Assembly (NCBI RefSeq): GCF_036365525.1
Contig: NC_090399.1
Coordinates: 42,378,430-42,442,429 of the forward strand
DNA: 64,000 nt
DNA from: Heterodontus francisci
Lineage: Eukaryota
Direction: 5' to 3'
The notes beneath the pieces are model-generated. The model searched no databases. It was not told where the DNA came from and saw only the letters and a list, made by a program, of their open reading frames with translations. How positions within the stretch are numbered: the stretch's first letter is position 1; every line of letters starts with the position of its first letter. Shown piece by piece: positions 1 to 57,473 of the stretch. Made by a program: the position numbers and the translations under genes.

Positions 1-2170
1 GTGGCTGTGTGTCCATGTGCACTGCTCTGATGGGTGCAGGAACAGGTGGCTGTGTGTCTATGTGCACTGCTCTGATGGGTGCAGGAACAGGTGACTGTGT
101 GTCCATGTGCACTGCTCTGATGGGTGCAGGAACAGGTGACTGTGTGTCCATGTGCACTGCTCGGATGGGTGCAGGAACAGGTGACTGTGTGTCCATGTGC
201 ACTGCTCGGATGGGTGCAGGAACAGGTGGCTGTGTGTCCATGTGCACTGCTCTGATGGTTGCAGGAACAGGTGGCAGTATGTCCATGTGCACTGCTCTGA
301 TGGTTGCAGGAACAGGTGACACTGTGTCCATGTGCACTGCACGGATGGGTGCAGGAACAGGTGGCTGCGTGTGAACGTGCACAGCTCTGATGGGTGCAGG
401 AACAGGTGGCTGTGTGTCCATGTGCACTGCTCTGATGGGTGCAGGAACAGGTGGCACTGTGTCAATGTGCACTGCTCTGATGCGTGCAGGAACAGTTGAC
501 TGTGTGTCCATGTGCACTGCTCTGATGGGTGCAGGAACATTTGGCAGTGTGTCAATGTGCAGTGCTCTGATGGGTGCAGGAACAGTTGACTGTGTGTCCA
601 TGTGCACTGCTCTGATGGGTGCAGGAACACGTGACTGTGTGTCCATGTGCACTGCTCTGATGGGTGCAGGAACAGGTGGCTGTGTGTCCTTGTGCACTGC
701 TCTGATGGGTGCACGAACAGGTGGCACTGTGTCCCTGTGCACTGCTCGGATGGGTGCAGGAACAGGTGGCTGTCTGTCCATGTGCACTGCTCGGATGGGT
801 GCAGGAACAGGTGGCTGAGTGTCCACGTGCACTGCTCTGATGGGTGCAGGAACAGGTGGCTGAGTGTCCACGTGCACTGCTCTGATGGGTGCAGGAACAG
901 GTGATTGTGTGTCCATGTGCACTGCTCTGATGGTTGCAGGAACAGGTGGCACTGTGTCCATGTGCACTGCATGGATGGGTGCAGGAACAGGTGGCTGCGT
1001 GTGAACGTGCACAGCTCTGATGGGTGCAGGAACAGGTGGCTGTGTGTCCATGTGCACTGCTCTGATGGGTGCAGGAACAGGTGACTGTGTGTCAATGTGC
1101 ACTGCTCTGATGGGTGCAGGAACAGGTGGCTGTGTGTCAATGTGCACTGCTCTGATGGGTGCAGGAACAGTTGACTGTGTGTCCATGTGCATTGCTCTGA
1201 TGGGTGCAGGAACAGTTGACTGTGTGTCCATGTGCATTGCTCTGATGGGTGCAGGAACAGTTGACTGTGTGTCCATGTGCACTGCTCTGATGGGTGCAGG
1301 AACAGGTGGCTGTGTGTCCATGTGCACTGCTCTGATGGGTGCAGGAACAGGTGGCTGTGTGTCAATGTGCACTGCTCTGATGGGTGCAGGAACAGTTGAC
1401 TGTGTGTCCATGTGCATTGCTCTGATGGGTGCAGGAACAGTTGACTGTGTGTCCATGTGCACTGCTCTGATGGGTGCAGGAACAGGTGGCTGTGTGTCCA
1501 TGTGCACTGCTCTGATGGGTGCAGGAACAGTTGACTGTGTGTCCATGTGCACTGCTCTGATGGGTGCAGGAACAGGTGGCTGTGTGTCCATGTGCACTGC
1601 TCTGATGGGTGCAGGAACAGGTGACTGTGTGTCCACTTGCACTGCTCGAATGGGTGCAGGAACAGGTGGCTGTGTGTCCATGTGCACTGCTCTGATGTGT
1701 GCAGGAACAGGTGGCTGTGTGTCCATGTGCACTGCTCTGATGTGTGCAGGAACAGGTGGCTGTGTGTCCATGTGCACTGCTCTGATGTGTGCAGGAACAG
1801 GTGGCTGTGTGTCCATGTGCACTGCTCTGATGTGTGCAGGAACAGCTGGCTGTGTGTCCATGTGCACTGCTCGGATGGGTGCAGGAACAGGTGACTGTGT
1901 GTCCATGTGCACTGCTCGGATGGGTGCAGGAACAGGTGGCTGTGTGTCCATGTGCACTGCTCTGATGGGTGCAGGAACAGGTGGCTGTGTGTCTATGTGC
2001 ACTGCTCTGATGGGTGCAGGAACAGGTGACTGTGTGTCCTTGTGCACTGCTCTGATGGGTGCAGGAACAGGTGACTGTGTGTCCATGTGCACTGCTTGGA
2101 TGGGTGCAGGAACAGGTGGCTCTGTGTCCACTTGCACTGCTCGGATGGGTGCAGGAACAGGTGGCTGTGT
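1..2170. repeat. 45-bp minisatellite, ~48 units, no indels; minus strand reads QPPVPAPIRAVHMDT in the transposase frame
   Basis: Unit gtggctgtgtgtccatgtgcactgctctgatgggtgcaggaacag keeps register every 180 bp from 1 to 2161. Variant gtgaacgtgcacagct recurs at 371 and 1001 (14-unit offset). Confidence 0.98.
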
Positions 2171-4589
2171 AATTGAGCAACAAGGAGACGGTACCGTATT
2201 TGAGGGAAGTGGAGCTTTGTACAGGCAGGTGTCTGTATGGTCCATCAGATCATTAGGCCTGGGGGTGAAACACTCAGGGTCCTTGGATTGTGGCACGTGA
2301 CTGATGTCCAGCGCTTGGCCACCTCCATCCAAGGTGCTTCTTAGCAATTGTTGGGCATGGTAAATGGCTCCATCTCATCAGCCAGTCCTTGCTGCCAGCG
2401 GAGAGTCTGTTGCCGCAGCCAGTCCAGTTTCCTCATGACTGCTGCCGTTCCACTCTGCAGAACGGCCTGTTGTAGCTGGTACAATTGATCTGAAAGCAAG
2501 CGGTATTTTTCATTGTAGCTGAAGGGCCTTGGCTGTTCCTCTGTAATCACAATGGCAGCAGCCATGCCTGTCGTCGTTGGTGTCTGCGATGCACGCCAGC
2601 GGCAGGTGGGGGCAAGCCTGTCCAATAGCATGTTTGCAGGGCAACAAAGTCTGAATGAAGAAGATGCAGCTGCGGGTAGCCTGGCCATCATGTATCTGCA
2701 GTGTGTACTGTTTGGCACCAGAAATCACAGTCACTGTGCCTTCATCCTGCTCCTTGACATGTACTCGCTGAATGTGGCTATGATCCTGATGCATCAGCTT
2801 CATAGCATGACTGGTGAATCCCGTGTAAAATGATTGTAGATCTGCTGGTGCCTCTGCGATGCGCTTGAAAGAGGCTCCCTGCAGGAATGTGTAATAGGCA
2901 CTCTCCCAATCCAGGACACTATTGTGGAAGATCAGCGCTGAGATGCATTCCTTCATGGATGAGGAGGAGTGGAGCAGGTGCTTTATCTTGCCACTCTCTG
3001 ACTCAATGCGATTGTTGGTGTTGTTCCCAAACGTTAGGACTTTACCGCGTGAACATGCTGCCCACATCTCCTTCTGTGGAATCCAGTTTGTCAGCAGGTA
3101 GTCCTGCAGGGGTGGGTAGAGGTGTCCAATCCTTTCTACACAACTTGTGATCTTCTCCTGCAAATGTGCATGAACCATTTCCTTGCAGATCATAAACAAC
3201 TGATCCCTCAGTTCACCATTCAATGGGGAGCTGCTGATCTTCCTCCTCATGCTCTGCATCACATGGAACTGACAGAGGAGAACCGTTGCAGCTGGGAGAT
3301 GCTTCCTGATCGCATTGATCTCATTGATGTCTTTATCCACAATGGCTGATCTCACGCGGCAGGCGCTGGATCCCATGAAATCGACAAAATCACCCACAAT
3401 CTCGTCCAGCATCTGAGACGTCTCATTCCTCACCATGGCATAGAACACAGCCCTGCCCCTACCAGCATTGTTCTGCACCATCACCTGGTACAGAGGGTAG
3501 CCGCATTTGTTCACCTTGTACGTTCCGTCCATGAACAGCAGTTCAGGAAAGGCCTGCATGTGGGCCTTCATGGCTGGTGTCATGAAGGCAATATAGAGGA
3601 TGTTGCTTCCCTGCAGGCCAACCCGTACTGCAGCCCCGTCCTGCTGAATCTTCTCCAGCGTATCACACAGCGCATCCATGCTGTCATCCCCTGTTTTGAG
3701 CCGGGATTTTACATTTCTAATGTCACTAAGGGTTATGGTCTTATTGAATGAACGCGCGATATAATCCTTCAGCTGTTTGTTCCCAGCCTGCAGCTTGACC
3801 AACTCTTCTACCTTCTGCCTTTCATCATGGTTCAGTTGTCGTCTCCTTGCATAGAAGCGTAAACATTCTGGATGCAAAACATGACCGGTATGTACAAGAT
3901 GGTAGGAGCTGACACACAGTTTGTTCTTGCTCGTATTGAATTTCACACTGATGAAGACCTCACAGCCCAGGGCGAGATACCTGAAAAGTTACACAGACAT
4001 TCAATGAGCACGCCCCACATGCCCTCACTAAAACGCCAGCCATCCCCAGGTGTGTTGCTGGCAGCAGTTTACATGTGCACCATGACAAGGTCCCAAAATC
4101 TGGTGCGCACCTGTTTCGCCATTGGTCTATCCAGGAAATCACAACAAAGGCAGTCCGTAGACACGGGGGCGGTATGCGCGTGGCTTTGTGGGCACAGGAT
4201 CTCACTGACGAGATGTATTGATACTGCAAATCGAATCTTGGTTCAATGGGCATCAAGGAACAGCTTTACAGGACTGACAAGCTACACAAGTGTAAATGTA
4301 GTGACCGCAGCACCTACCTCTGATTCGGTCTCACTCCAGTAGAATGGATGCGTGGCTGCCCATAGTGTACACAGCACAGCCTCACTGAGGCATAAGCACA
4401 ACAGCAAAGTACATTTAAATAGCATTGTTAACATAGTGAAACATAACAAGGCACATCACAGGATGTGCCTGCAGACCAGGCTACCTGTTGAAACATCTCA
4501 GGTTTACTGCTGAAGTCGTCATAACTCTCGAACTCCTGGGTTGTGAAGGTGGCAAGGAACTGCTCTGTGGAATCTACTGACGTTGCCAT
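1..4589 (-). mobile_element. Mutator-like (MULE) DDE transposase gene, ZSWIM1/ZSWIM3-type, spliced and decayed; 3' end runs off the window
   Basis: Exon 1 4589-4485 (MATSVDSTEQFLATFTTQEFESYDDF...FQQ|GTAG). Exon 2 remnant ~4395-4318 (YASVRLCCVHYGQPRIHSTGVRPNQ-AG|GTAGGT). Exon 3 from 3980 (ttttcag|G; R-YLALGCEVF...HLVHTGH), phase-compatible with exon 2. MULE motifs FMDGTYK, IVDKD, CQFH, NNRIES; SWIM-like finger (R)SC...PCKH. Frameshifts near ~2610 and ~2375. Confidence 0.88.
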
Positions 4590-4760
4590 GATCGAAGTTT
4601 GAGGTTCAGGAAGGCTATTAAGGGACCACACGGGAAACATGAGATGAGATAAGAAATACAGAATGCACTCCATTGAAACGTTACAAAAACGAACGTGACC
4701 GTTTAGATGGTAGGTTGTTCGCTGGACTGCAGCACAGGTACTGCCTGCACACAGCAACTC

Positions 4761-4880
4761 ACAACAGGAACTGGAGCACATGCGGTGCCCCAGACAATGG
4801 AAATGCTTTCAGAGCAGCTTGCAACAGGGACTGGAGCACATGCGGTGCCCCAGACAATGGAAATGTTTTCAAAGCAACTT
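4761..4880. repeat. 60-bp tandem duplication upstream of the transposase ATG
   Basis: 4761-4820 and 4821-4880 share caacagg-actggagcacatgcggtgccccagacaatggaaatg. Confidence 0.9.
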
Positions 4881-4974
4881 ACAACGGCAGAGCAACTTAC
4901 CTTGGAACAATCTCCTGTGTCTAATAAAAATGAAGCAAATCTCCAAAACGACTAAATAATTCAGATAAAATGCG

Positions 4975-5325
4975 AGAAAATGCCCGACGAAACCTCTCCT
5001 CCTTCCACTTTCAAAAAGTCGCGCCGAAGCTTTGACGCATGCGTGAATATCCGAAGATGGACGCATGCGCAGAGGACAACCTGGCACGTTGCCCGAGGAA
5101 GACGACGTAATGCGATGATGTCATCTGCGCATGCGCAAAGTGGCTCTGGCAAGCCGGACCGCAGCGCATGCGCAGAGAGCAGGAGACCGTGTGCGCATGT
5201 GCGCACCGCGGCGCAGCCTGATGACGTCAGCGCTGACGAAGCGTTGCCATGAATCACTTTGAACAAACATCATGAACTATCCAATCAGAGAAATGCTGAT
5301 TGTTACATCACCAGTTGCCAGGGAG
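4975..5325. promoter_or_regulatory. CpG-rich promoter-like / subterminal region with clustered NRF1-type palindromes, CRE and CCAAT
   Basis: TGCGCATGCGCA at 5126-5137, near-matches at ~5034, 5061, 5164 and 5192; TGACGTCA 5222-5229; CCAATCAG 5281. CpG-dense compared with the flanks. Confidence 0.6.
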
Positions 5326-5389
5326 GATAAATATTTGACACAGAAAGTGACAGAGGGAAGAGTGTTATGAACAGGATGGGGTCATTCAT

Positions 5390-7400
5390 TCAGACGTTCG
5401 GGCCTGCTACACTATTCAAATGGATCATTGCTGATCCTGTATCTTAATTCCATTTTCCTGGCTTTCCTCCAAATCCCTTGATACCGTTATCCAATAATAA
5501 TCGCTTAATCTTGGTCTGAAAAGTTCCCATTGTCCCAACTTCCACAACTATTTTGAGGAGAGAGTTCCAAATGTTTATTACCCTTGTGAAAATGTGCTTC
5601 CTGATTTCCCTCCTAAACAGCATAGCTCGAATTTTAAGATGGTAGATTCATAGAGTCATTCATGTCATAGGAGGAGGCCATTCGCCCCATCGAGTCCATG
5701 ACAGCTCTCCATGGAACAATCCAGTCAATCCCACTTTTCCACTTGATCCCCGTTGTCCTGCAAGTGTATTTCCTTCAGCTGCCCATCCATTTTTCACCAC
5801 CCTCGTGGGCAGTGAGCTCCAAGTCATTACCACTCACTGCGTAAAAAAAATTCTTCCTCACATTCCCCCTGCAGAATTTCCCCAAAGCTTTCAATCTGTG
5901 TCCCCCTAGTCCTTGTTCGATTAGTTAATGGGAACAAATTTTCCTTGTCTATCTTATCAAAGCTTGTCATAATCTTATACACTTCTATTAAATCTCCCTC
6001 AATCTCCTTTGTTTTAAGGAGAATAAACCCAGCTTTCCCAACCTAAACTAATAACTAAAATCCTCCATCCCTGGATCCTCACATCCTTGCTGAAGTGTGA
6101 TAACCAGAAATGGATGCAATACTCCAATTGGGGCGTGACCAGAGTTTTGTAAAGGTTCAGCATAACTTCCATGCTTGTGTACTCAATGCCTCTGTTTATG
6201 AAGCCCAAATCCCATCTGCTTTGCGAACCACTCTCTCAATATGTCCTTCCAAGGTTGATGCACATGCACCCCCAGATCCCCCTCTTCCTGCACTTCTTTA
6301 GAACTGTGCCATTAAGTATATATTGCCTCACCCTATCCCTGCAGCCAAAATATATCACCTAACACTTATCTGTATTAAATTCTATCTGTCACCTGTCTGC
6401 CCATTCTGCTAGCCTATGTCCTTTTGCAGGCAGTTTATATCATCCTCACTGTTTGCCACTCCTCTAAGTTTGGTATCAGTGGCAAATTTGGAAATTCTAC
6501 TCTGTATTCCAAGATCCAAGTCATTTATCTATAGCAAAAAAAACAGTGGTTCCAGCACTGACCCTTGGGGAACATCACTGTCTACCATCCTCCAGTCTGA
6601 AAAACAGCCATTTACCACCACTCACTGTTCTCTGTACTTCAGCCAATTTTTTATCCAATTGGACTCCAACCCTCCTATTCCATGAGCCTCAATTTTGTTA
6701 ACCACAATTTTTTGCGGTTCCTTATCAAACGCTTTTTAAAATTCCATAGAAACAACATCCATCGCATTCCCATCATCAACCTTCTCTGTAACTTCATCAA
6801 AAAATTCAATTTGATTAGTTAAGCATAATCTGCCTTTTCCAAATCCATGCTGGTTCTCCTTAATTCACTCAAACCTCTCCAAGTGCCTGTTGATTTTTTA
6901 CCCTGATCATTGTTTCTAAAACCTTACCCACCACTGATGTTAAACTAACTGGCCTGTAGATGCTCGGACTGTCCTTACACCCTTTCTTGAATAAGGATGC
7001 CATATTTGACACTCTCTAATCGTCTGGCACCTCCCCCACATCCAGGTAAGATTGGAAGATTATGGCAAGCCCTTCCACAAGCTCCACTCCATTTCCTTTC
7101 GCAAACTGGGATGCAACCAGTGATTTATCTACCCAAAGCAATACCAGCCTTTTTCATAACCCTCCCTCTCGATTTTTACCCTATCCATTGCCCCTACTCT
7201 GATTTTGTCAGATTCTTCTTCCTTAGTAACCAACAATACAAAGTACTAATTAAGTATTCTAGCCTTGCCCTGTGCCCATGGGCCCTTAGTAGGCCCCACT
7301 CCATCTCTTACTACCTGCTTACTAGTTACATGAAGATTTTTGGGTTCCCTTTTATGTTGACTGCCATTCTATTCTCATTCTTTCTTTGCCAGGCTTACTT
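5390..7400 (-). mobile_element. CR1-type LINE fragments (two 3' ends plus decayed RT)
   Basis: Antisense CR1 3' tails at ~5400 and ~5650; minus ORF with LVTPQLEYCIHFW; RT remnants (antisense of VPQGSVL) at ~6555. Confidence 0.85.
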
Positions 7401-7440
7401 TCCTCATCACCACCCCTCTCAATTAATTGCATTGGGCTCA

Positions 7441-8200
7441 TCTTTTATCCTCCCCGCCCGTCTCACTGTGCTCTCACTCTCTTGGCTACTTTTTTATCCT
7501 CCCCGCCAGTCTCACTGTGTTCTCACTCTCTCAGCTGCTCTTTTATCTTTCTCGCCGGTCTCACTGTGCTCTCACTCTCTCGGCTGCTCTTTTATCCTCC
7601 TCGCTGATCTCACTGGGCTCTCACTCTCCGGGCTGCTCTTTTATCCTCCCCGCCAGTCTCACTGTGCTCTCACTCTCCGGGCTGCTCTTTAATCCCCCCC
7701 CCCCCGCCGGTCTCACTGTGCTTCCACTCTCTCAGCTGCTCTTTTGTCCTCCCTGCCGGGCTCGATGTGCTCTCTCTCTCCGAACTGCTCTTTATCCTCC
7801 TCGCCGGTCTCACTGCGTTCTCACTCTCCGAACTGCTCTTTTATCCTCCCCGCCAGTCTCACTGTGCTCTCACTCTCCGGGCTGCTCTTTAATCCCCCCC
7901 CCCCCGCCGGTCTCACTGTGCTTCCACTCTCTCAGCTGCTCTTTTGTCCTCCCTGCCGGGCTCGATGTGCTCTCTCTCTCCGAACTGCTCTTTATCCTCC
8001 TCGCCGGTCTCACTGCGTTCTCACTCTCCGAACTGCTCTTTTATCCTCCCCACCAGTCTCACCGTGCTCCCACTTTCTTGGCTGCTCATTTATCCTCCTC
8101 GCAGGTCTCACTGTGCTCTCACTCTCCGGGCTGCTCTTTTAACCTCCCCACCGGTCTCACTGTGTTCTCACTCTCCGAGCTGCTCTTTTATCCTCCCCGC
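7441..8200. repeat. 49-bp CT-rich minisatellite with a 200-bp higher-order duplication
   Basis: ttttatcc starts at 7443/7492/7541/7590/7639; the block at 7641 is repeated at 7841. Confidence 0.92.
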
Positions 8201-8204
8201 TGAT

Positions 8205-9290
8205 ATTTTCCTTGTTCTCAATTCCTCCACCACAGGAAATAGTTGCCCTGTCTCAACACTGTTGAATCCTTTTAACATTATAAATACCTCAATCAGATCA
8301 TCCTTCAACCTTCTATACAAGGGGAATACAAGCCAAGTGTATGTAACCTCCCTTTATGCTCTGGTATCATTCTGGTCAATCTGCACTGCACCCCCTCCAA
8401 GAACAATATATCCTTGCTGAGGGGCACTGCCCAAAACTGAACACAGTTCCTCCAGGTGGGGTCTGACCAAGGCTCCGTCCACCTGAATCATCACTTCCTC
8501 CACTTTGTATTCCAGCTCCCTCGAGATGAAGGCCAATATTTCATTAAACAGACTGGTGAAATGGGCAGATCCACAACAGATACAATTTAATGCAGAGAAC
8601 TGTTTGAAGTGATGCATTTTGGAAGGAAGAATGAGGAGAGGCAATATAAACTAAATGGCACAATTTTAGAGAGGATGCAAGGATGGAGAGAGCTGGTGTG
8701 TGTATGTACACAAATCACTGAAGGTGACAGGACAAGGTGAGAAGTCTGTTAAAATGCATTTCAGATCCTTGGCTTTATAAGTGGAGACACAGAGTACAAA
8801 AGCAAGGAAGTTATGAAGTTATGGTAAACCTTTATAAATCACTGGTTAGACCCCAGCTGGAATATCGTGTCCAATCCTGGGCACCAGACTTTGGAAATGA
8901 TGTCATGGCCTTGGAGAGGGTGCAGAGGAGATTTATTTTTTATTTTATTTAGAGATACAGCACTGAAACAGGCCCTTCGGCCCACCGAGTCTGTGCCGAC
9001 CATCAACCACCCATTTATACTAATCCTACACTAATTCCATATTCCTACCACATCCCCACCTGTCCCTATATTTCCCTACCACCTACCTATACTAGGGGCA
9101 ATTGCTAATGGCCAATTTACCTATCAACCTGCAAGTCTTTGGCATGTGAGAGGAAACCGGAGCACCCGGAGAAAACCCACGCAGACACAGGGAGAACTTG
9201 CAAACTCCACACAGGCAGTACCCAGAATTGAACCCGGGTCGCTGGAATGGGACCAGGGATGAGGGAGTTCAGTTAATATGAAGAGACAAT
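8205..9290. mobile_element. CR1 fragments in opposite orientations (minus 8205-8545; plus 8546-8931 and 9247-9290)
   Basis: Minus ALVRPHLE; plus [19 protein letters not shown]...ALERVQRRF, interrupted by a SINE. Confidence 0.8.
8932..9246 (-). mobile_element. HE1-like V-SINE, 5'-truncated
   Basis: Antisense of the V-SINE core (gtgtggagtttgcaagttctccctgtgtctgcgtgggttt...ccggtttcct) and CR1-like tail (ggccgaagggcctgtttcagtgctgtatctct + (TAAAA)n). Confidence 0.9.
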
Positions 9291-9945
9291 TCAGTATTTT
9301 TTTTTCAGATGTTTGAATGTTTATTTAATGTTCTGTTGAGTTGTGCAGTGCCCTGACTGAACCAATGTGGTTACAACAACCAATGGGAGGGAATTATTTG
9401 ATCAAATTATTTGGCTTTGAAATTGGGTGACAGATTTAATTGGTCAATAACCTCTCATTGTAATTTCTATTAGATTGTTCACTTTTAGTCAGTCAGATAT
9501 CTGAAAGTAACTGAGCAGCTGACTGGTTACTTGAGGCAATACTGAATATTACACTTTGGGAGGTTGAGGAGCTATAGGGATACATTTGGGGAGGAGGGTG
9601 GGTGGGAAAAACAGACACCAGGAGCAGGGGGCTGGGGGAAAAGACACTCAGTGGAGGGGAGGGGAGACACTCAGTGGGGTGGGTTTGGGGAAGAAGACAC
9701 TCAGTAGAGGGGAGGGGAGACACTCGGTCGGGAGTGGGTTTGGGGTGGTGGGAGAGACAACCAGAGCTGGGAGGGTGGGGGGAGAGACACAGAGCTGGTG
9801 GGGGGATAGACAGAGAGCTGCCGGGGGGGGGGGGGGGTGGGAGACACTCGGGGTGGGGGAAGGGGACACGCTGAGAGGGCCCGACACCCCAAGGGGCAAC
9901 ACACTGAGCTGTGATATCCTGAAGTGAAAGACTCTGAATTTTGAC

Positions 9946-10262
9946 TCTGGGGTGAGACTCGCTGGGGTGAAACTCACTGGGGTGTGACTCACTGGGGTGT
10001 GACTCGCTGGGGTGTGACTCGCTGGGGTGTGATGTTGGGGTGTGACTCGCTGGGGTGTGACTCGCTGGGGTGTGATGTTGGGGTGAGACTCGCTGGGGTG
10101 AGACTCACTGGGGTGAGACTCGCTGGGGTGTGATGTTGGGGTGAGACTCGCTGGGGTGAGACTCACTGGGGTGAGACTCGCTGGGGTGTGATGTTGGGGT
10201 GAGACTCGCTGGGGTGAGACTCGCTCGGGTATGATGTTGGGGTGCGAGTCGCTGGGGTGAGA
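9946..10262. repeat. 14/15-bp G-rich minisatellite (gctggggtgagactc / gttggggtgtgat)
   Basis: About 20 units, each with a GGGG run; preceded by a degenerate G-rich tract at 9585-9900. Confidence 0.9.
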
Positions 10263-10879
10263 GGGTGAACACAGAATCTGCTATTGGGAGATGACTCTGG
10301 GCCTTGCTGGTACAGTTGTGGCTCTCACTCTGAGTGTCAGTGACATGCTCGATGTGGGGGTTTTATTAGAAGTGAAAGTGGAGGAAACAGTCTCTTCTCG
10401 GAAGAAGCTGGACTGCAGCCAGTGACCGGGCTCTGCACTGTGACTGGGAATGTGTAACAGAATCGTGCTGTCCTCACTGGCAGGATTCAGACGCAGATAC
10501 TCAGCTGATGCTGTGTTTCTCTTTAAAACAACAGCAACTAAACACTTCAAGTAATTCACCGGCTGCCTGGCATTGGCAGGGGTCCTGGGGACATGAACAG
10601 TGCTGTATAGACACGAATTTGATCAATAACTTTCTAAAAGTTAGTTCAGGGACTTTCCAACAGTGATAAAGACAAGGCAGTGGGCAGCAAGCAAACAACT
10701 ATATGGGTGGGCCCAGGGGGAGCTACCAAGGAGTGGGAGGGGATAGTGTACAGGGTCAAAGTGTAAAGTCTGTAGTTTGAACACAGTATTTCAGGGCAAT
10801 GAAATCCCTGAAAGAACTTTCTCCACAGTCTCATTCCCAGCCTTTACCCCATTCACCCATCACCCCTTTCCCCCCACTC

Positions 10880-13800
10880 AGTAATAAACCCTAATTGTGA
10901 AATAAACCACAAACCTGGTAAAATACTGTACCCACAGAAATGTACCGTACATCCAATAATAAACACAACAACCAAAAATATACAGTGCACTCAGTAATAA
11001 ACCATACATGCAATTATATATCATAAACCCAGTGATTAAACCGCACACCCAGTGACAAACTGCACCCTCTCCGTAATAAACCGTGCAAGTAATAAACCAG
11101 ACCCTCCATAATAAACCACACAATTAATAAACCAGACCCTCCATAATAAACCTACAGAAGTAATAAACCAGACCCTCCATAATAAACCACACAATTAATA
11201 AACCAGACCCTCCATAATAAACCACAGAAGTAATAAACCAGACCCTCCATAATAAACCTACAGAAGTAATAAACCAGACCCTCCATAATAAACCTACAGA
11301 AGTAATAAACCAGACCCTCCATAATAAACCACAGAAGTAATAAACCAGACCCTCCATAATAAACCTACAGAAGTAATAAACCAGACCCTCCATAATAAAC
11401 CGACAGAAGTAATAAACCAGACCCTCCATAAGAAACCACACAATTAATAAACCAGACCCTCCATAATAAACCTACAGAAGTAATAAACCAGACCCTCCAT
11501 AATAAACCACAAAAGTAATAAACCAGACCCTCCATAATAAACCTACAGAAGTAATAAACCAGACCCTCCATAATAAACCACAGAAGTAAGAAACCAGACC
11601 CTCCATAATAACCTACAGAAGTAATAAACCAGACCCTCCATAATAAACCACAAAAGTAATAAACCAGACCCTCCATAATAAACCTACAGAAGTAATAAAC
11701 CAGACCCTCCATAATAAACCACACAATTAATAAACCAGACCCTCCATAATAAACCTGCAGAAGTAATAAACCAGACCCTCCATAATAAACCACAGAAGTA
11801 ATAAACCAGACCCTCCATAATAACCTACAGAAGTAATAAACCAGACCCTCCATAATAAACCACAAAAGTAATAAACCAGACCCTCCATAATAAACCTACA
11901 GAAGTAATAAACCAGACCCTCCATAATAAACCACACAATTAATAAACCAGACCCTCCATAATAAACCTACATAAGTAATAAACCAGACCCTCCATAATAA
12001 ACCACAAAGGTAATAAACCAGACCCTCCATAATAAACCACACAATTAATAAACCAGACCCTCCAGAATAAACCACAGAAGTAATAAACCAGACCCTCCAT
12101 AATAAACCTACAGAAGTAATAAACCAGACCCTCCATAATAAACCACACAATTAATAAACCAGACCCTCCATAATAAACCTACAGAAGTAATAAACCAGAC
12201 CCTCCATAATAAACCACAAAAGTAATAGACCAGACTCTCCATAATAAACCTACAGAAGTAATAAACCAGACCCTCCATAATAAACCACACAATTAATAAA
12301 CCAGACCCTCCATAATAAACCTACGGAAGTAATAAACCAGACCCTCCATAATAAACCACACAATTAATAAACCAGACCCTCCATAATAAACCTACAGAAG
12401 TAATAAACCAGACCCTCCATAATAAACCACAAAAGTAATAAACCAGACCCTCCATAATAAACCTACAGAAGTAATAAACCAGATCCTCCATAATAAACCA
12501 CACAATTAATAAACCAGACCCTCCATAATAAACCTACAGAAGTAATAAACCAGACCCTCCATAATAAACCACACAATTAATAAACCAGACCCTCCATAAT
12601 AAACCTACAGAAGTAATAAACCAGACCCTCCATAATAAACCTACAGAAGTAATAAACAAGACCCTCCATAATAAACCACAAAAGTAATAAACCAGACCCT
12701 CCATAATAAACCTACAGAAGTAATAAACCAGATCCTCCATAATAAACCACACAATTAATAAACCAGACCCTCCAAAATAAACCTACAGAAGTAATAAACC
12801 AGACCCTCCATAATAAACCACACAATTAATAAACCAGACCCTCCATAATAAACCTACAGAAGTAATAAACCAGACCCTCCATAATAAACCACACAATTAA
12901 TAAACCAGACCCTCCATAATAAACCTACAGAAGTAATAAACCAGACCCTCCATAATAAACCACACAATTAATAAACCAGACCCTCCATAATAAACCACAC
13001 AATTAATAAACCAGACCCTCCATAATAAACCACACAATTAATAAACCAGACCCTCCATAATAAACCTACAGAAGTAATAAACCAGACCCTCCATAATAAA
13101 CCACACAATTAATAAACCAGACCCTCCATAATAAACCACACAATTAATAAACCAGACCCTCCATAATAAACCACACAATTAATAAACCAGACCCTCCATA
13201 ATAAACCTACAGAAGTAATAAACCAGACCCTCCATAATAAACCACACAATTAATAAACCAGACCCTCCATAATAAACCTACAGAAGTAATAAACCAGACC
13301 CTCCATAATAAACCACACAATTAATAAACCAGACCCTCCATAATAAACCACACAATTAATGAACCAGACCCTCCATAATAAACCTACAGAAGTAATAAAC
13401 CAGACCCTCCATAATAAACCACACAATTAATAAACCAGACCCTCCATAATAAACCACACAATTAATAAACCAGACCCTCCATAATAAACCTACAGAAGTA
13501 ATAAACCAGACCCTCCATAATAAACCACACAATTAATAAACCAGACCCTCCATAATAAACCTACAGAAGTAATAAACCAGACCCTCCATAATAAACCACA
13601 CAATTAATAAACCAGACCCTCCATAATAAACCTACAGAAGTAATAAACCAGACCCTCCATAATAAACCACAGAAGTAATAAACCAGACCCTCCATAATAA
13701 CCTACAGAAGTAATAAACCAGACCCTCCATAATAAACCACAAAAGTAATAAACCAGACCCTCCATAATAAACCTACAGAAGTAATAAACCAGACCCTCCA

Positions 13801-16800
13801 TAATAAACCACACAATTAATAAACCAGACCCTCCATAATAAACCTACAGAAGTAATAAAACAGACCCTCCATAATAAACCACAAAGGTAATAAACCAGAC
13901 CCTCCATAATAAACCACACAATTAATAAACCAGACCCTCCAGAATAAACCACAGAAGTAATAAACCAGACCCTCCATAATAAACCTACAGAAGTAATAAA
14001 CCAGACCCTCCATAATAAACCACACAATTAATAAACCAGACCCTCCATAATAAACCTACAGAAGTAATAAACCAGACCCTCCATAATAAACCACAAAAGT
14101 AATAGACCAGACTCTCCATAATAAACCTACAGAAGTAATAAACCAGACCCTCCATAATAAACCACACAATTAATAAACCAGACCCTCCATAATAAACCTA
14201 CAGAAGTAATAAACCAGACCCTCCATAATAAACCACACAATTAATAAACCAGACCCTCCATAATAAACCTACAGAAGTAATAAACAAGACCCTCCATAAT
14301 AAACCACAAAAGTAATAAACCAGACCCTCCATAATAAACCTACAGAAGTAATAAACCAGATCCTCCATAATAAACCACACAATTAATAAACCAGACCCTC
14401 CATAATAAACCTACAGAAGTAATAAACCAGACCCTCCATAATAAACCACACAATTAATAAACCAGACCCTCCATAATAAACCTACAGAAGTAATAAACCA
14501 GACCCTCCATAATAAACCTACAGAAGTAATAAACAAGACCCTCCATAATAAACCACAAAAGTAATAAACCAGACCCTCCATAATAAACCTACAGAAGTAA
14601 TAAACCAGATCCTCCATAATAAACCACACAATTAATAAACCAGACCCTCCAAAATAAACCTACAGAAGTAATAAACCAGACCCTCCATAATAAACCACAC
14701 AATTAATAAACCAGACCCTCCATAATAAACCTACAGAAGTAATAAACCAGACCCTCCATAATAAACCACACAATTAATAAACCAGACCCTCCATAATAAA
14801 CCTACAGAAGTAATAAACCAGACCCTCCATAATAAACCACACAATTAATAAACCAGACCCTCCATAATAAACCACACAATTAATAAACCAGACCCTCCAT
14901 AATAAACCTACAGAAGTAATAAACCAGACCCTCCATAATAAACCACACAATTAATAAACCAGACCCTCCATAATAAACCACACAATTAATAAACCAGACC
15001 CTCCATAATAAACCTACAGAAGTAATAAACCAGACCCTCCATAATAAACCACACAATTAATAAACCAGACCCTCCATAATAAACCACACAATTAATAAAC
15101 CAGACCCTCCATAATAAACCACACAATTAATAAACCAGACCCTCCATAATAAACCACACAATTAATAAACCAGACCCTCCATAATAAACCACACAATTAA
15201 TAAACCAGACCCTCCATAATAAACCTACAGAAGTAATAAACCAGACCCTCCATAATAAACCACACAATTAATAAACCAGACCCTCCATAATAAACCTACA
15301 GAAGTAATAAACCAGACCCTCCATAATAAACCTACAGAAGTAATAAACCAGACCCTCCATAATAAACCTACAGAAGAAATAAACCAGACCCTCCATAATA
15401 AACCACACAATTAATAAACCAGACCCTCCATAATAAACCACACAATTAATAAACCAGACCCTCCAAAATAAACCACACAATTAATAAACCAGACCCTCCA
15501 TAATAAACCACACAATTAATAAACCAGACCCTCCATCATAAACCACACAATTAATAAACCAGACCCTCCATAATAAACCACACAATTAATAAACCAGACC
15601 CTCCATAATAAACCACACAATTAATAAACCAGACCCTCCATAATAAACCACACAATTAATAAACCAGACCCTCCATAATAAACCTACAGAAGTAATAAAC
15701 CAGACCCTCCATAATAAACCACACAATTAATAAACCAGATCCTCCATAATAAACCACACAATTAATAAACCAGACCCTCCATAATAAACCACACAATTAA
15801 TAAACCAGACCCTCCATAATAAACCACACAATTAATAAACCAGACCCTCCATAATAAACCTACAGAAGTAATAAACCAGACCCTCCATAACAAACCACAC
15901 AATTAATAAACCAGACCCTCCATAATAAACCACACAATTAATAAACCAGACCCTCCATAATAAACCTACAGAAGTAATAAACCAGATCCTCCATAATAAA
16001 CCACACAATTAATAAACCAGACCCTCCATAATAAACCACACAATTAATAAACCAGACCCTCCATAATAAACCACACAATTAATAAACCAGACCCTCCATA
16101 ATAAACCACACAATTAATAAACCAGACCCTCCATAATAAACCACACAATTAATAAACCAGACCCTCCATAATAAACCTACAGAAGTAATAAACCAGATCC
16201 TCCATAATAAACCACACAATTAATAAACCAGACCCTCCATAATAAACCACAAAAGTAATAAACCAGACCCTCCATAATAAACCTACAGAAGTAATAAACC
16301 AGACCCTCCATAATAAACCACACAATTAATAAACCAGACCCTCCATAATAAACCTACAGAAGTAATAAACCAGACCCTCCAGAATAAACCACACAATTAA
16401 TAAACCAGACCCTCCATAATAAACCTACAGAAGTAATAAACCAGACCCTCCATAATAAACCACACAATTAATAAACCAGACCCTCCAAAATAAACCTACA
16501 GAAGTAATAAACCAGACCCTCCATAATAAACCACACAATTAATAAACCAGACCCTCCATAATAAACCTACAGAAGTAATAAACCAGACCCTCCATAATAA
16601 ACCACACAATTAATAAACCAGACCCTCCATAATAAACCACACAATTAATAAACCAGACCCTCCATAATAAACCACACAATTAATAAACCAGACCCTCCAT
16701 AATAAACCTACAGAAGTAATAAACCAGACCCTCCATAATAAACCTACAGAAGTAATAAACCAGATCCTCCATAATAAACCACACAATTAATAAACCAGAC

Positions 16801-19800
16801 CCTCCATAATAAACCTACAGAAGTAATAAACCAGACCCTCCATAATAAACCACACAATTAATAAACCAGACCCTCCATAATAAACCTACAGAAGTAATAA
16901 ACCAGACCCTCCATAATAAACCACACAATTAATAAACCAGACCCTCCATAATAAACCACACAATTAATAAACCAGACCCTCCATAATAAACCTACAGAAG
17001 TAATAAACCAGACCCTCCATAATAAACCACACAATTAATAAACCAGACCCTCCATAATAAACCTACAGAAGTAATAAACCAGACCCTCCATAATAAACCA
17101 CACAATTAATAAACCAGACCCTCCATAATAAACCTACAGAAGTAATAAACCAGACCCTCCATAATAAACCTACAGAAGTAATAAACCAGACCCTCCATAA
17201 TAAACCTACAGAAGTAATAAACCAGACCCTCCATAATAAACCACACAATTAATAAACCAGACCCTCCATAATAAACCACACAATTAATAAACCAGACCCT
17301 CCATAATAAACCACACAATTAATAAACCAGACCCTCCATAATAAACCTACAGAAGTAATAAACCAGACCCTCCATAATAAACCACACAATTAATAAACCA
17401 GACCCTCCATAATAAACCTACAGAAGTTATAAACCAGACCCTCCATAATAAACCACACAATTAATAAACCAGACCCTCCATAATAAACCTACAGAAGTAA
17501 TAAACCAGACCCTCCATAATAAACCACACAATTAATAAACCAGACCCTCCATAATAAACCTACAGAAGTAATAAACCAGACCCTCCATAATAAACCTACA
17601 GAAGTAATAAACCAGACCCTCCATAATAAACCACACAATTAATAAACCAGACCCTCCATAATAAACCACACAATTAATAAACCAGACCCTCCATAATAAA
17701 CCTACAGAAGTAATAAACCAGACCCTCCATAATAAACCACACAATTAATAAACCAGACCCTCCATAATAAACCACACAATTAATAAACCAGACCCTCCAT
17801 AATAAACCTACAGAAGTAATAAACCAGACCCTCCATAATAAACCACACAATTAATAAACCAGACCCTCCATAATAAACCTACAGAAGTAATAAACCAGAC
17901 CCTCCATAATAAACCTACAGAAGTAATAAACCAGACCCTCCATAATAAACCACACAATTAATAAACCAGACCCTCCATAATAAACCTACAGAAGTAATAA
18001 ACCAGACCCTCCATAATAAACCTACAGAAGTAATAAACCAGACCCTCCATAATAAACCACACAATTAATAAACCAGACCCTCCATAATAAACCACACAAT
18101 TAATAAACCAGACCCTCCATAATAAACCTACAGAAGTAATAAACCAGACCCTCCAAAATAAACCTACAGAAGTAATAAACCAGACCCTCCATAATAAACC
18201 ACACAATTAATAAACCAGACCCTCCATAATAAACCTACAGAAGTAATAAACCAGACCCTCCATAATAAACCACACAATTAATAAACCAGACCCTCCATAA
18301 TAAACCACACAATTAATAAACCAGACCCTCCATAATAAACCACACAATTAATAAACCAGACCCTCCATAATAAACCTACAGAAGTAATAAACCAGACCCT
18401 CCATAATAAACCTACAGAAGTAATAAACCAGATCCTCCATAATAAACCACACAATTAATAAACCAGACCCTCCATAATAAACCTACAGAAGTAATAAACC
18501 AGACCCTCCATAATAAACCACACAATTAATAAACCAGACCCTCCATAATAAACCTACAGAAGTAATAAACCAGACCCTCCATAATAAACCACACAATTAA
18601 TAAACCAGACCCTCCATAATAAACCACACAATTAATAAACCAGACCCTCCATAATAAACCTACAGAAGTAATAAACCAGACCCTCCATAATAAACCACAC
18701 AATTAATAAACCAGACCCTCCATAATAAACCTACAGAAGTAATAAACCAGACCCTCCATAATAAACCACACAATTAATAAACCAGACCCTCCATAATAAA
18801 CCTACAGAAGTAATAAACCAGACCCTCCATAATAAACCTACAGAAGTAATAAACCAGACCCTCCATAATAAACCTACAGAAGTAATAAACCAGACCCTCC
18901 ATAATAAACCACACAATTAATAAACCAGACCCTCCATAATAAACCACACAATTAATAAACCAGACCCTCCATAATAAACCACACAATTAATAAACCAGAC
19001 CCTCCATAATAAACCTACAGAAGTAATAAACCAGACCCTCCATAATAAACCACACAATTAATAAACCAGACCCTCCATAATAAACCTACAGAAGTTATAA
19101 ACCAGACCCTCCATAATAAACCACACAATTAATAAACCAGACCCTCCATAATAAACCTACAGAAGTAATAAACCAGACCCTCCATAATAAACCACACAAT
19201 TAATAAACCAGACCCTCCATAATAAACCTACAGAAGTAATAAACCAGACCCTCCATAATAAACCTACAGAAGTAATAAACCAGACCCTCCATAATAAACC
19301 ACACAATTAATAAACCAGACCCTCCATAATAAACCACACAATTAATAAACCAGACCCTCCATAATAAACCTACAGAAGTAATAAACCAGACCCTCCATAA
19401 TAAACCACACAATTAATAAACCAGACCCTCCATAATAAACCACACAATTAATAAACCAGACCCTCCATAATAAACCTACAGAAGTAATAAACCAGACCCT
19501 CCATAATAAACCACACAATTAATAAACCAGACCCTCCATAATAAACCTACAGAAGTAATAAACCAGACCCTCCATAATAAACCTACAGAAGTAATAAACA
19601 AGACCCTCCATAATAAACCACACAATTAATAAACCAGACCCTCCATAATAAACCTACAGAAGTAATAAACCAGACCCTCCATAATAAACCTACAGAAGTA
19701 ATAAACCAGACCCTCCATAATAAACCACAAAAGTAATAAACCAGACCCTCCATAATAAACCTGCAGAAGTAATAAACCAGACCCTCCATAATAAACCTAC

Positions 19801-20095
19801 AGAAGTAATAAACCAGACCCTCCATAATAAACCACACAATTAATACACCAGACCCTCCATAATAAACCACACAATTAATAAACCAGACCCTCCATAATAA
19901 ACCACAGATGTAATAAACCAGACCCTCCATAATAAACCACACAATTAATAAACCAGACCCTCCATAATAAACCACAAAAGTAATAAACCAGACCCTCCAT
20001 AATAAACCACAAAAGTAATAAACCAGACCCTCCATAATAAACCTACAGAAGTAATAAACCAGACCCTCTGTAATAAACCACACAATTAATAAACC
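10880..20095. repeat. ~9.2-kb satellite, 35/36-bp unit with two major interspersed variants
   Basis: Constant part taataaaccagaccctccataataaacc followed by acacaat (35 bp) or tacagaag (36 bp); degenerate units at 10880-11100. Confidence 0.99.
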
Positions 20096-21275
20096 ATGAT
20101 GATGGTATCTGTCCATCTCGGGAGACAATGGACTTTGTCCAAGGTGTGTGTCATTTCTGAATTGAACAACTTCTGTTGTGGCTGTGGAGGCTGGCTCGTG
20201 AGTGGCATTCCCTTACACAGCTGGCACAGATGAACAACATTGGCCCAAGGTTTGTTTCTGTTTGTTTTCCTTCTGCCGGCCTCTCTTTTCTGCCATCATT
20301 TATTTTGTCTTCTGCTTTTTCCACACTCTTCCTGACTGCCTTTCTCCAGACACTCCAGTCAGTGTAGTATAATGGCCTGAAAGGGTTAATGTTTGAGACA
20401 GTGAGAGTAAACCCCTCCCATAGCAATGATGAGGATGTAATGGTCACATGGGTATTAGGCTGGGAAGAAGCTAGAAGCAGCACGAGAAGTGTTGGCTAGA
20501 CAGGCTTGTGGAGAGTGTAAATAGTTATATGTATATTATAAACAAGTTATTCATTAACCCTGCAAAGACTCTGAAACTTCTGTTAACAACACTCAATCCA
20601 GGCGACAACAATACCCAAGAGTCAGCAGCAAGGACTTCCCACACATCGACTCTGATCCCGGTCAATTTGAGGTCTAGCTTTCAGACATCCTTGTATCGCA
20701 GACATGGATGACCTGTTGGTCTCGGCCAATAGCTCGCGTCTTTGTGTATGCAGCCATCAGCTGTCACTCATTTAGCCAACGAATTTGCCGCTGACTCAAG
20801 AGGGCAAACATGCTGGGGATCCCTATACACCGGTATACTTCTGTATTTGACACACTGTCCTGCCAGGAGATGCCCAATATCTGTCTGAGGCAGCAGAGCT
20901 GGAAGCTGTTCAGTCACTTTTCTTGGCTTGCACAAGTTGTCCATGTTTCGCTACTATAAAGGAGGGTGCTGAGAACACAAGTCTGGTACACGCAGAGCAT
21001 TGTATTTTCGGTTAGTTTGCTGTTGGTCCACACTCACCTTCTCAACTTTAACATGACAGCTGCGGCCTTGGCAATGTTGGTGCTGATTTCGGCATCAAAG
21101 GGGCAGGTTGCTGGTGATTGTTGATCCAATGTATGTGAAGCTGTCGCTGACCTCCAGAGTGAGGTTGTCCATGTTGATGGAAGGTGGAGTCTCTATGTCC
21201 TGACACATATCTTTTGTCTTCCTGACACTGATCATCAGTCTAAACTCCTTGCAGGCCCAGGAGAACCGATCTACA
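20096..21275 (-). mobile_element. RTE-clade LINE 3' portion (RT end, C-terminal CCHC-like motif, (CAT)n tail)
   Basis: Minus translation WEVLAAD-WSVWRKAV...CASCVRECHSRASLHSHNRSC; atgatgatg tail at 20096. Confidence 0.85.
20363..20620. mobile_element. 258-bp solo-LTR-like insertion in the RTE
   Basis: Starts TGTAGT, ends caaga (inferred caaca); 5-bp TSD GTCAG at 20358-20362 and 20621-20625. Removing it restores the RTE frame. Confidence 0.75.
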
Positions 21276-22884: not shown

Positions 22885-24760
22885 CAAAGAACAGAGAACA
22901 GTGCAGCACAGGAACAGGCCATTCGGCCCTCCAAGCCTGCGCCGATCTTGATGCCTGCCTAAACTAAAACCTTCTGCACTTCCGGGGACCGTATCCCTCT
23001 ATTTCCAACCTATTCATGTATTTGTCAAGATGCCTCTTAAACGTCGCTATCGTACATGCTTCCACCACCACCCCCGGCAGCAAGTTCCAGGCACTCACCA
23101 CCCTCTGTGTAAAGAACTTGCCTCGCACATCCCTTCTAAACTTTGCCCCTCTCACCTTAAACCTATGTCCCCTAGTAACTGACTCTTCCACCCTGGGAAA
23201 AAGCTTCTGACTATCCACTCTGTCCATGTCGCTCATAACTTTGTAAACCTCCATCACGTTGCCCCTCCACCTCCGTCGTTCCAGTGAAAACAATCCAAGT
23301 TTATCCAACCTCTCCTCATAGCTAATGCCCTCCAGACCAGGCAACATCCTGGTAAACCTCTTCTGTACCCTCTCCAAAGCCTCCATGTCCTTCTGGTAGT
23401 GTGGCGACCAGAATTGCACGCAATATTCTAAGTGTGGCCTAACTAACGTTCTGTACAGCTGCAGCATGACTTGTCAATTTTTATACTCTATGCCCCGACC
23501 GATGAAGGCAAGCATGCCGTATGCCTTCTTGACTGCCTTATCCACCTGCGTTGCCACTTTCAGTGACCTGTGGACCTGTACGCCCAGATCTCTCTGCCTG
23601 TCAATACTCCTAAGGGTTCTGCCATTTACTGTATACTTCCCACCTGCATTAGACTTTCCAAAATGCATTACCTCACATTTGTCCGGATTAAACTCCATCT
23701 GCCATTTCTCCGCCCAAGTCTCCAACCGATCTATATCCTGCTGTATCCTCTGACAATCCTCATCACTACCCGCAACTCCACCAACCTTTGTGTCGTCCGC
23801 AAACTTACTAATCAGACCAGCTACATTTTCCTTCAAATCATTTATATATACTACAAACAGCAAAGGTCCCAGCACTGATCCCTGCGGAACACCACTAGTC
23901 ACATCCCTCCATTCAGAAATAGCACCCTTCCACCTCTATCTTCTTTGACAGAGCCAGTTCTGTATCCATCTTGCCAGCTCACCTCTGATCCAGTGTGACT
24001 TCACCTTTTGTACCAGTCTGCCATGAGGGACCTTGTCAAAGGCTTTACTGAAGTCCATATAGATAACATCCACTGCCCTTCCTTCATCAATCATCTTTGT
24101 CACTTCCTCAAAAAACTCAATCAAATTAGTAAGACACGACCTCCCCTTCACAAAACTATGCTGCTTCTCACTAATAAGTTTGTTTGTTTCCAAATGGGAG
24201 TAAATCCTGTCCCGAATAATCCTCTCTAATAGTTTCCGTACCACTGACGTGAGGCTCACCGGCCTATAATTTCCTGGATTATCCTTGCTTCCCTTCTTAA
24301 ACAAAGGAACAACATTGGCTATTCTCCAGTCCTCTGGGACCTCACCTGTAGCCAATGAGGATGCAAAGATTTCTGTCAAGGCCCCAGCAATTTCTTCCCT
24401 TGCCTCCCTCAGTATTCTAGGGTAGATCCCATCAGGCCCTGGGGACTTATCTACCTTAATGCTTCGCAAGACACCCAACACCTCCTCCTTTTTGATAATA
24501 AGATGACTGAGACTATCTACACACCCTTCCCTCGGCTCATCATCCACCAAGACCTACTCTTTGGTGAATACTGATGCAAAGTACTCATTTAGTACCTCGC
24601 CCATTTCCTCTGGCTCCACACATAGATTCCCATCTCTGTCCTTGAGTGGGCCAACCCTTTCCTGAGTTACCCTCTTGCTCTTTATAAAAAGCCTTGGGAT
24701 TATCCTTAATCCTGTTTGCCAATGACTTTTCATGACCCCTTTTAGCCCTCCTGACTCCTT
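22885..24760 (-). mobile_element. Young CR1 (HER1-like) LINE, 5'-truncated, RT nearly intact
   Basis: ORFs 23936-24550, 23474-23902 and 22964-23467: [43 protein letters not shown]. Confidence 0.95.
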
Positions 24761-39844: not shown

Positions 39845-40183
39845 TGGCACAGTGGCGCAGTGGTTAGCACCGCAGCCTCACAGCTCCAGCGACCCGGGTT
39901 CAATTCTGGGTACTGCCTGTGTGGAGTTTGCAAGTTCTCCCTGTGTCTGCGTGGGTTTCCTCCGGGTGCTCCGGTTTCCTCCCACATGCCAAAGACTTGC
40001 AGGTTGATAGGTTAATTGGCCATTATAAATTGCCCCTAGTATAGGTAGGTGGTAGGGAAATATAGGGACAGGTGGGGATGTGGTAGGAATATGGGATTAG
40101 TGTAGGATTAGTAAAAATGGGTGGTTGATGTTCGGCACAGACTCGGTGGGCCGAAGGGCCTGTTTCAGTGCTGTATCTCTAAA
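39845..40183 (+). mobile_element. HE1-like V-SINE, full length
   Basis: ggcacagtggcgcagtggttagcacc (A box) ... gggttcaattc (B box), V-core, tail cctgtttcagtgctgtatctct. Confidence 0.93.
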
Positions 40184-40321
40184 AACTAAAAGAAAGTGAG
40201 AGCAAATGACAGACAAAGCGAGAGATGAAGAGGGAAACAGAGACAGAGATATAGGGAAAGAGAGAGAGAAAACAAGAGACTGAAAGAGAATGTGAGAGCC
40301 TGTATCAAAGAGAAAGATGGA

Positions 40322-40905
40322 GACATGGAAATTACTGCCTAACTTGTCACCTAGCAAATACATCTGCAAAGACCTCTTCACAATTTGTACACTTCTTTCT
40401 GCAGCACCATTTGATGCTGGGTGATATGGTGATATTAGAGTGTGTTTGACTCCATTCTTACTCAGAAATATTTCAAACTCTTCTGACATAAACTGTGGAC
40501 CATTATCTGACACCAACACCTCTGGCAACCCATAAATTACAAAACAACTTCTCAAAAACTCAATAGTTTTAGTACTTGTGGTATTGAGCATAGAGTCAAC
40601 ATTTATCCACTTGCTATAGCTATCGACCAAAACAAAATACTCTTTCCCTTCCACTTCAAAGAAATCAACATGTACTTGTTCCCATGGTTTTCTTGTGTTT
40701 GATCATGGAATGAAAGGAACCTTGGTTGGATTATTTCTCATTCTGAGACACACTTCACAACTTTTCACCAACTCTTCAATATCTCGATCTACCTTTGAAG
40801 ACAAAACTAGCTTCTTACTACTGCTTTCATACGGACTATCCCCGTGTGCTCTTGATGAAGTTCCACTTACAATCTTTCTCTAAATCTTGGTGGAATAATA
40901 GATCT
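40322..40905 (-). mobile_element. Gypsy integrase fragment, copy 2
   Basis: YFVLVDSYSKW...LVSDNGPQF...PYHPASNGAAERSVQ; closely similar to 38465-39050. Confidence 0.9.
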
Positions 40906-57182: not shown

Positions 57183-57473
57183 AAACCCATTCCCCAAATA
57201 CCAAAAATACGCATCAGACCGACTCCCCAAACACCAGCAAAACCCATCAGACCGACTCCCCAAACACCAGCAAAACCATCAGACCTCCAAACACCAGCAA
57301 AACCCATCAGACCCCCAAACACCAGCAAAACCCATCAGACCCCCAAACACCAGCAAAACCCATCAGACCCCCAAACACCAGCAAAACCCATCAGACCCCC
57401 AAACACCAGCAAAACCCATCAGACCCCCAAACACCAGCAAAACCCATCAGACCCCCAAACACCAGCAAAACCA
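57183..57473. repeat. ~30/31-bp minisatellite, piece 2
   Basis: Tandem cccaaacaccagcaaaacccatcagacc. Confidence 0.95.

Follow-up and report, generated by a model that had tools for sequence, protein, structure and literature searches.

A stretch of 64,000 nucleotides from the horn shark Heterodontus francisci (RefSeq assembly GCF_036365525.1, contig NC_090399.1, positions 42,378,430 to 42,442,429; hereafter the window) begins inside a 45-bp minisatellite, through which one frame of the minus strand stays open as far as the window edge. Does this hidden open reading frame (ORF) encode protein? An earlier note on this DNA had proposed that it forms the C-terminal tail of a Mutator-like element (MULE) transposase, with a very large proline-rich linker that might lead to a further domain. 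We conclude that the locus is very probably a broken copy of a multi-copy shark transposase gene of the ZSWIM3-like MULE type, that a 15-codon stretch of its tail has likely expanded as a neutral minisatellite, and that the long frame is likely a by-product of this expansion, with no protein made from it.

The frame itself is as long as the earlier note had reported (at least 790 codons): from 2374 to position 2 of the minus strand it is free of stops for 791 codons. The greater part of it is the minisatellite (1..2170, minus strand), a tandemly expanded 15-codon stretch of transposase tail that is cut by the window edge and holds at least 48 units of 45 nt without a single indel, in line with the approximate count of 48 given before. 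Tandem Repeats Finder scored 48.2 copies with 92% matches, and 31 distinct unit sequences occur among the 48. Across 1-2170 the array frame is the sole stop-free frame of the six (37, 19 and 4 stops in the plus-strand frames, and 2, 0 and 5 in the minus-strand frames), and it is equal modulo 3 to the ORF containing the transposase core (3988..2510), both as previously stated. The array ORF resembles no known protein in the searches made: Pfam assigned no family to it or to the frame-shifted segment ahead of it, the first 400 codons gave 358 candidates among proteins of 220-700 aa, none at E<=0.001, and the best score for residues 1-250 in the ESM Atlas (0.83) lies in the chance range.

Upstream of the array, exon 3 (2624..3980, minus strand) encodes a core with a ZSWIM1/3-type RNase H-like MULE transposase domain (Pfam PF21056, 8.9e-28; PF10551, 1e-17, 64.8 bits against a cut-off of 27.6). 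The catalytic motifs D, D, CxxH and E are present at 3532, 3340, 3274 and 3016. By motif and by alignment with relatives, the DDE triad is kept as D152, D216 and E327 of the core segment; the CxxH motif lies 21 residues past the second D, the criterion being (C/D)xxH at 15-45 residues, and W upstream of E occupies conserved columns in the aligned relatives and in the window translation. The DDE triad, CxxH, W and a target site duplication (TSD) are given as MULE criteria in PMC5499845. A search with the core returned 24 proteins of 270-861 aa, the best of which were H. francisci models labelled ZSWIM3-like. Five of these models, on five contigs (59-209 Mb), are each damaged or truncated: P0030 (XP_067904632.1), P0007 (XP_067866046.1), P0008 (XP_067887000.1), P0014 (XP_067870466.1) and P0006 (XP_067912888.1), the last of which has lost two catalytic residues. 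The paralogs are up to 94% identical to the window copy, with identical core residues at 428/453 positions in P0030, 333/356 in P0007, 263/303 in P0008 and 346/453 in P0006.

Alignment to these paralogs divides the claim that the array is the transposase tail into a part that stands and a part that does not. The array lies in the tail frame of the family, which P0014 reads through; in the window copy it is not continuous with the core. In tblastn the paralogs follow frame -1 to 2624, frame -2 over 2625 to approximately 2332, and frame -1 again from 2329, and so depart from the frame of the core ORF at 2624 and rejoin it at 2329. Between core and array the core ORF's own frame contains three stops, ending at 2510, 2378 and 2375. 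The intervening DNA (2332..2622, minus strand) is a conserved post-SWIM segment of the transposase, frame-shifted in the window copy, in which 91 of 97 residues are identical to residues 607-703 of P0030. The first 15 codons that had been quoted for the hidden ORF (2374-2330) are an out-of-frame reading of transposase DNA, and the homologous tail begins at 2329. Judged by in-frame alignment to P0008 412-453, P0014 226-311, P0030 705-727 and P0006 681-725, the homology of the hidden ORF truly starts with the unique low-complexity codons ahead of the array (2171..2329, minus strand).

Reads from other copies of the family identify what was damaged. We placed contigs of four runs (X1, X5, X8 and X11) on 2123-5450 at 85% likeness, a stretch that includes only one array unit. 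X1 and X11 are DNA-like, and X5 and X8 were taken as RNA by guess, X8 skipping an intron exactly; depth is summed contig depth, which is no copy number and is usable as a rough rank only. The window copy is a pseudogene that carries five lesions ahead of the array, and with these and three in-frame stops before it the array is not continuous with an initiated ORF. A 29-nt deletion right behind the SWIM motif (2622..2623) causes the first frameshift: 29 extra letters are present in one X5 contig and in loose ends of X1, and the equivalent of P0030 residues 597-606 is absent. The second frameshift is a 1-nt deletion relative to other copies (2330..2331), recognised by a frame switch in tblastn and by one more base behind 2330 in contigs of all four runs, although in X1 this base is shown directly in only 262 of 3,930 depth, plus loose ends. 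A premature TAA (2341..2343, minus strand) stands where other copies, including P0030, P0008 and P0014, have a Pro codon, the window's letters being replaced in 97-99% of X1 depth and throughout the X5, X8 and X11 depth; all three adjacent bases differ from the family codon, an unusual multi-base change near the 1-nt deletion. Exon 2 has lost its acceptor and first 30 codons, and loose ends of X5 and X11 at 4393-4394 run into the missing part. The SWIM zinc finger is not intact, its first cysteine being Arg in the window copy (2674) and Cys in reads and paralogs; the paralog P0008 clears the SWIM cut-off (20.0 against 19.6).

The core and the array share a frame because the 29-nt and 1-nt deletions sum to 30 and cancel. 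Coincidence was ruled out as the source of the match by this total of 30, and the match is inherited. Assembly error is an unlikely source of the 29-nt and approximately 90-nt losses. The window's letters at 2343 and 2359 are supported by an X1 depth of about 14, but X1 could itself derive from the source sample, and for several other letters of the window this support is lacking. Among the core differences between window and reads listed (40 of 411 rows, excluding those in non-coding DNA, the stop codon and mixed-subfamily sites), at least nine are found, eight of them amino-acid changing, which fits neutral decay. In the tail at least 18 are listed, 14 of them non-synonymous; these may stem from other subfamilies, and we do not count them as private to the window copy.

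The caution, voiced when the frame was first described, that openness alone is weak evidence of selection proved correct: in a neutral simulation (30 random changes per draw, three mutation models, 20,000 draws each) the array frame acquired no stop with a probability of 0.53-0.60. Only 2 of the 135 possible single-base changes in the consensus unit create a stop in the array frame, the lowest number among the six frames, and another minus-strand frame stays open for 644 codons. The 48 units carry 30 distinct changes relative to the majority unit, distributed over codon positions as 10, 11 and 9; six are synonymous (6.7-8.2 expected under neutrality in the simulation) and 24 non-synonymous. 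There is no sign of purifying selection on the array units. Gain or loss of whole units keeps the frame because the unit is 45 nt long, and the array illustrates cleanly that a unit of 3n length with few potential stops can yield a long open frame in the absence of selection. The hidden ORF is thus itself ordinary, an in-frame repeat expansion within a dead gene.

In the reads, the ends of the element are also far deeper than its core. Depth in X1 is approximately 850-1,700 over the core, 139,516 in the bin of the 45-bp unit and 309,071 in a non-coding 60-bp tandem repeat of 2.2 units in the element's 5' part (4753..4885), and it falls at the left edge from 27,834 (5120-5230) to 421 (5231-5341) and 107 (5342-5450). 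X11 has a depth profile of the same shape at a lower level, with the unit bin exceeding the core approximately 70-fold, against 100-fold in X1. Six core-skipping joints, among the 15 of 61 joints listed, link the 5' part to the tail in three of the four runs (X1, X5 and X8): 2433-4629, 2751-4841, 2470-4496, 2229-4604, 2196-4604 and 2775-4707. A further X8 joint (2157-4810) was set aside as weak, having a 25-letter side and lying between two repeats. A sharp left boundary, deep ends and core-deleted derivatives are what a DNA transposon accompanied by non-autonomous derivatives would show. The family is apparently a dispersed, once-mobile Mutator-type family in sharks with many internally deleted derivatives; the window contains no second copy of the element. 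Position 4604 is joined to 2229 and 2196 in the RNA-like runs of two organisms (X5 and X8), and this similar core-less derivative points to an old, perhaps transcribed, non-autonomous subfamily. The 60-bp repeat is the deepest bin in both DNA-like runs, and both element ends thus carry expandable repeats; a relationship between the 45-bp and 60-bp units as foldback arms was rejected, as shuffles match the score in 242 and 220 of 2000 cases.

We considered whether the family instead arose by segmental duplication of a domesticated ZSWIM3-like host gene, the window copy being one of its pseudogenes, and regard this as unlikely. Databases label the paralogs as ZSWIM3-like, the gene is interrupted by introns and CpG-rich at its 5' end, and we could not find a pair of terminal inverted repeat (TIR) arms bracketing the element within 2100-12000, all of which would suit a host gene. 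So would a relative in white and basking sharks (P0010, P0031-P0033) that lacks the catalytic core, retains the N-terminal, SWIM and tail parts, is approximately 90% conserved between the two species, and has several isoforms; we view it as a candidate domesticated copy. Against segmental duplication stand a depth that falls sharply at the 5' edge, element ends much deeper than the core and the many different internal deletions, and none of the five horn shark models is an intact conserved copy, P0006 being without two catalytic residues. The phylogeny also argues against a host gene. In a midpoint-rooted tree of 25 of the 48 proteins plus the window core, trimmed to the core-matching range and without the core-less, short and redundant proteins, six shark rows group together (100/99), adjoining P0009 and gastropod proteins (100/98) and apart from the Ulp1-bearing proteins. 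The nearest non-shark relatives are invertebrate or unnamed proteins, in a tree that has no rows for vertebrate ZSWIM3, Rehavkus or Phantom; tetrapod ZSWIM3 is absent from it because it was absent from the core-search matches.

Quite unlikely, too, is that the functional transposase of the family has a proline-rich linker of more than 700 residues leading to an Ulp1 or PHD domain, and that the window copy derives from it by recent breakage. In favour of this, the array lies in the tail frame, and invertebrate relatives carry domains beyond a basic RGRPK-like motif. The number of array units across the paralogs is, however, 0 to approximately 4, against at least 48 in the window. P0014 has the pre-array tail and one or two units in the array frame, and stops 63 residues further on, past an RGRPK-like motif; in P0006 and P0048 no more than a proto-unit is present, followed by approximately 110 and 70 residues to the end; P0032 ends just beyond the proto-unit; and P0008 has approximately three or four units, annotated in another frame following a frameshift. 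The earlier note had named termination of paralogs at the 2341 stop as a test of its proposal. None of those that cover the site terminates there (three have Pro, and two diverged ones have Arg), but P0030 and P0007 end ahead of the array and P0008 enters another frame. Ulp1 and PHD gave no match at E<=0.05 in seven shark or shark-like proteins, only three of which (P0014, P0006 and P0048) extend past the array site, and these three end within approximately 60-110 residues without such a domain. The core search among proteins of 862-2460 aa gave five matches, none from sharks, which for a search of this long range is weak evidence, and the array query had found nothing at 220-700 aa. With the P0014 tail as query, a profile-free search of 1.84 billion representatives returned only P0014, P0010 and P0048. 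The Ulp1 bearers, moreover, lie outside the clade of sharks, P0009 and gastropods. With five lesions in the window copy, units that show no purifying selection, no shark match among the long proteins and so few units in the paralogs, the proposed transposase with a very large proline-rich linker is unsupported. If any domain follows the array, it is more likely PHD than Ulp1, and the shark models, though decayed copies, argue for none.

A novel repeat protein translated from the array frame alone, by way of a transcript that is alternatively spliced or has an internal deletion, is very unlikely: X5 and X8 contigs do link 4604 directly to 2229 and 2196 and cover the unit bin, but these joints are not GT..AG on the gene strand, drop the ATG at 4589 and derive from other copies, and the array has neutral variants, no Pfam match, no homolog among proteins of 220-700 aa and an Atlas score in the chance range.

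The preferred reading, a decayed transposase gene with a neutrally expanded tail, suggests how the array may have arisen. In an intact element the unit would be present in one or few copies, as part of a linker between the post-SWIM helical segment and the basic RGRPK-like motif, and the intact protein would end approximately 60-110 residues past it. A single 15-codon stretch in this disordered linker would have been duplicated, and slippage or unequal exchange would then have expanded the unit; copies without a working transposase would tolerate any array length, and transposase-less derivatives that keep both element ends may have spread the unit through the genome. Beyond the window copy, we consider the chances roughly even that a Mutator-type family was recently mobile in the horn shark, that 15 of its tail codons became a minisatellite, seeded through the genome by transposase-less derivatives and far commoner there than the enzyme gene, and that some intact copy may keep a length-variable in-frame tail.

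Several observations weigh against the decayed-gene reading. The array is clean, its 2170 nt being free of indels and its 48 units free of stops, which fits a recent whole-unit expansion and fits selection too, and it runs to the window edge, so that its far side is beyond view. The paralog evidence consists of five automatic models of decayed copies, and there may be an intact copy whose array is long, or a PHD domain that the models have lost. Neither TIRs nor a TSD were seen, and transposition is therefore inferred. Tail-bearing transcripts are possible, since splicing of the family is seen in at least one run (X8) and both RNA-like runs cover the unit bin. Among the RNA-like contigs we saw no intact copy. 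The longest listed piece (X5 record 17) follows the family frame across 2622 and 2330 and ends at 2234, with a 44-nt frameshift of its own, a skip that also truncates P0007; contigs of X8 and X11 are one base short at 3173. No piece joining core and array was present among the pieces listed (32 of approximately 4,390), on a stretch that holds one array unit.

Close published parallels are found in invertebrates. Dupeyron et al. 2019 (PMC6446971) describe a minisatellite at the C-terminal end of the transposase in Rehavkus and one after the ORF in the aphid Phantom, so that these elements, as described there, share with the shark family a MULE-type transposase with a minisatellite at or after its C-terminal end. 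Rehavkus, which we compared by its description only, has a PHD finger and is listed there from arthropods and annelids, whereas the shark models have no PHD match. Invertebrate ZSWIM1/3-type MULEs (P0002, P0003, P0005, P0009 and P0011) have the same N-terminal, RNase H-like, SWIM and post-SWIM layout as the shark family, and the same RGRPK-like motif past a variable low-complexity linker, at 26-38% identity; in the invertebrate proteins PHD, or Ulp1 plus PHD, follows this motif, whereas the shark models end shortly behind it. Pfam identified Peptidase_C48 in P0005 (6.4e-11) and, weakly, P0003; PHD matches were found in P0002 and P0005, and weak ones in the closer relatives P0009 and P0011; in P0002 and P0003 Ulp1 plus PHD were recognised by alignment. 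Ulp1 has been recorded in Mutator elements (PMC2836005). P0011 (Elysia chlorotica) has its own short tandem peptide repeats in the linker before the RGRPK motif, which suggests that the linker is repeat-prone across the clade. An apparent N-terminal fusion to a GDSL/SGNH hydrolase-like domain was noted in P0001, P0002 and P0004 (tick, stick insect and one further record), with a Pfam match in P0001 and P0004.

Within H. francisci, the ZSWIM3-like models belong to the same family as the window copy and have the same tail, the unit being recognisable in P0014 and P0008; they differ in unit number, each is broken elsewhere, and databases name them as host genes. The vertebrate host genes ZSWIM1 and ZSWIM3 share with the shark family the Pfam ZSWIM1-3 RNase H-like, helical and N-terminal families. 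They are reported as one gene each in human, mouse and Xenopus (PMC10236294), in contrast to the dispersed, decaying and multi-copy shark family. If our reading is true, several ZSWIM3-like shark gene models are transposon copies, and the array adds a case of a minisatellite born from transposon coding DNA; minisatellites born in transposons are reviewed in PMC6947457. Dupeyron et al. 2019 (PMC6446971) report no valid vertebrate MULE transposase, and their text poses true absence from vertebrates as an open question. This question would become testable with a multi-copy family that is 94% identical, retains catalytic residues and has both spliced transcripts and deletion derivatives. Vertebrate MULE relics are not unheard of, 437 MULE-MuDR fossils being given for the human genome in PMC9004415. 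The literature found contains no description of the shark family, which Repbase, Dfam, subscription journals and supplements, all outside its coverage, may list; nor is the family described in the available text of PMC10236294, PMC5381603, PMC13359780, 10.1101/2021.09.26.461848 or 10.1101/2025.02.19.638963.

The sequence and the paralogs together give a gene layout of three coding exons on the minus strand. The first coding exon (4485..4589) starts at an ATG at 4589, comprises 35 codons up to a GT donor at 4484, and aligns from residue 1 of P0006, P0010 and P0032. It is followed by a damaged intron 1 (4484-4395, minus strand, from sequence and paralogs), by the 3' remnant of exon 2 (4318..4394), recognised by tblastn and reads, and by intron 2 (3981..4317, GT..AG, 337 nt), which is skipped in two contigs of run X8. 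The left end of the element (5030..5330) is CpG-rich and contains repeated GCGCATGCGC palindromes, with a boundary at approximately 5230-5330 as judged by the drop in X1 depth. This end is likely a promoter or subterminal region, and the GCGCATGCGC palindromes presumably resemble NRF1 sites.

The rest of the window is repeat-dense. We identified a 9-kb array of a 35/71-bp unit at 11069-20096 (approximately 255 copies, 93-95% matches), and further minisatellites at 7441-8200, 9947-10262 and 57225-57472. Retroelement remnants are found at 23936-24553, 55701-56639, 60074-61081, 40097-40702 and 47171-47773, comprising three reverse transcriptase pieces, one integrase core and one weak GIY-YIG match.

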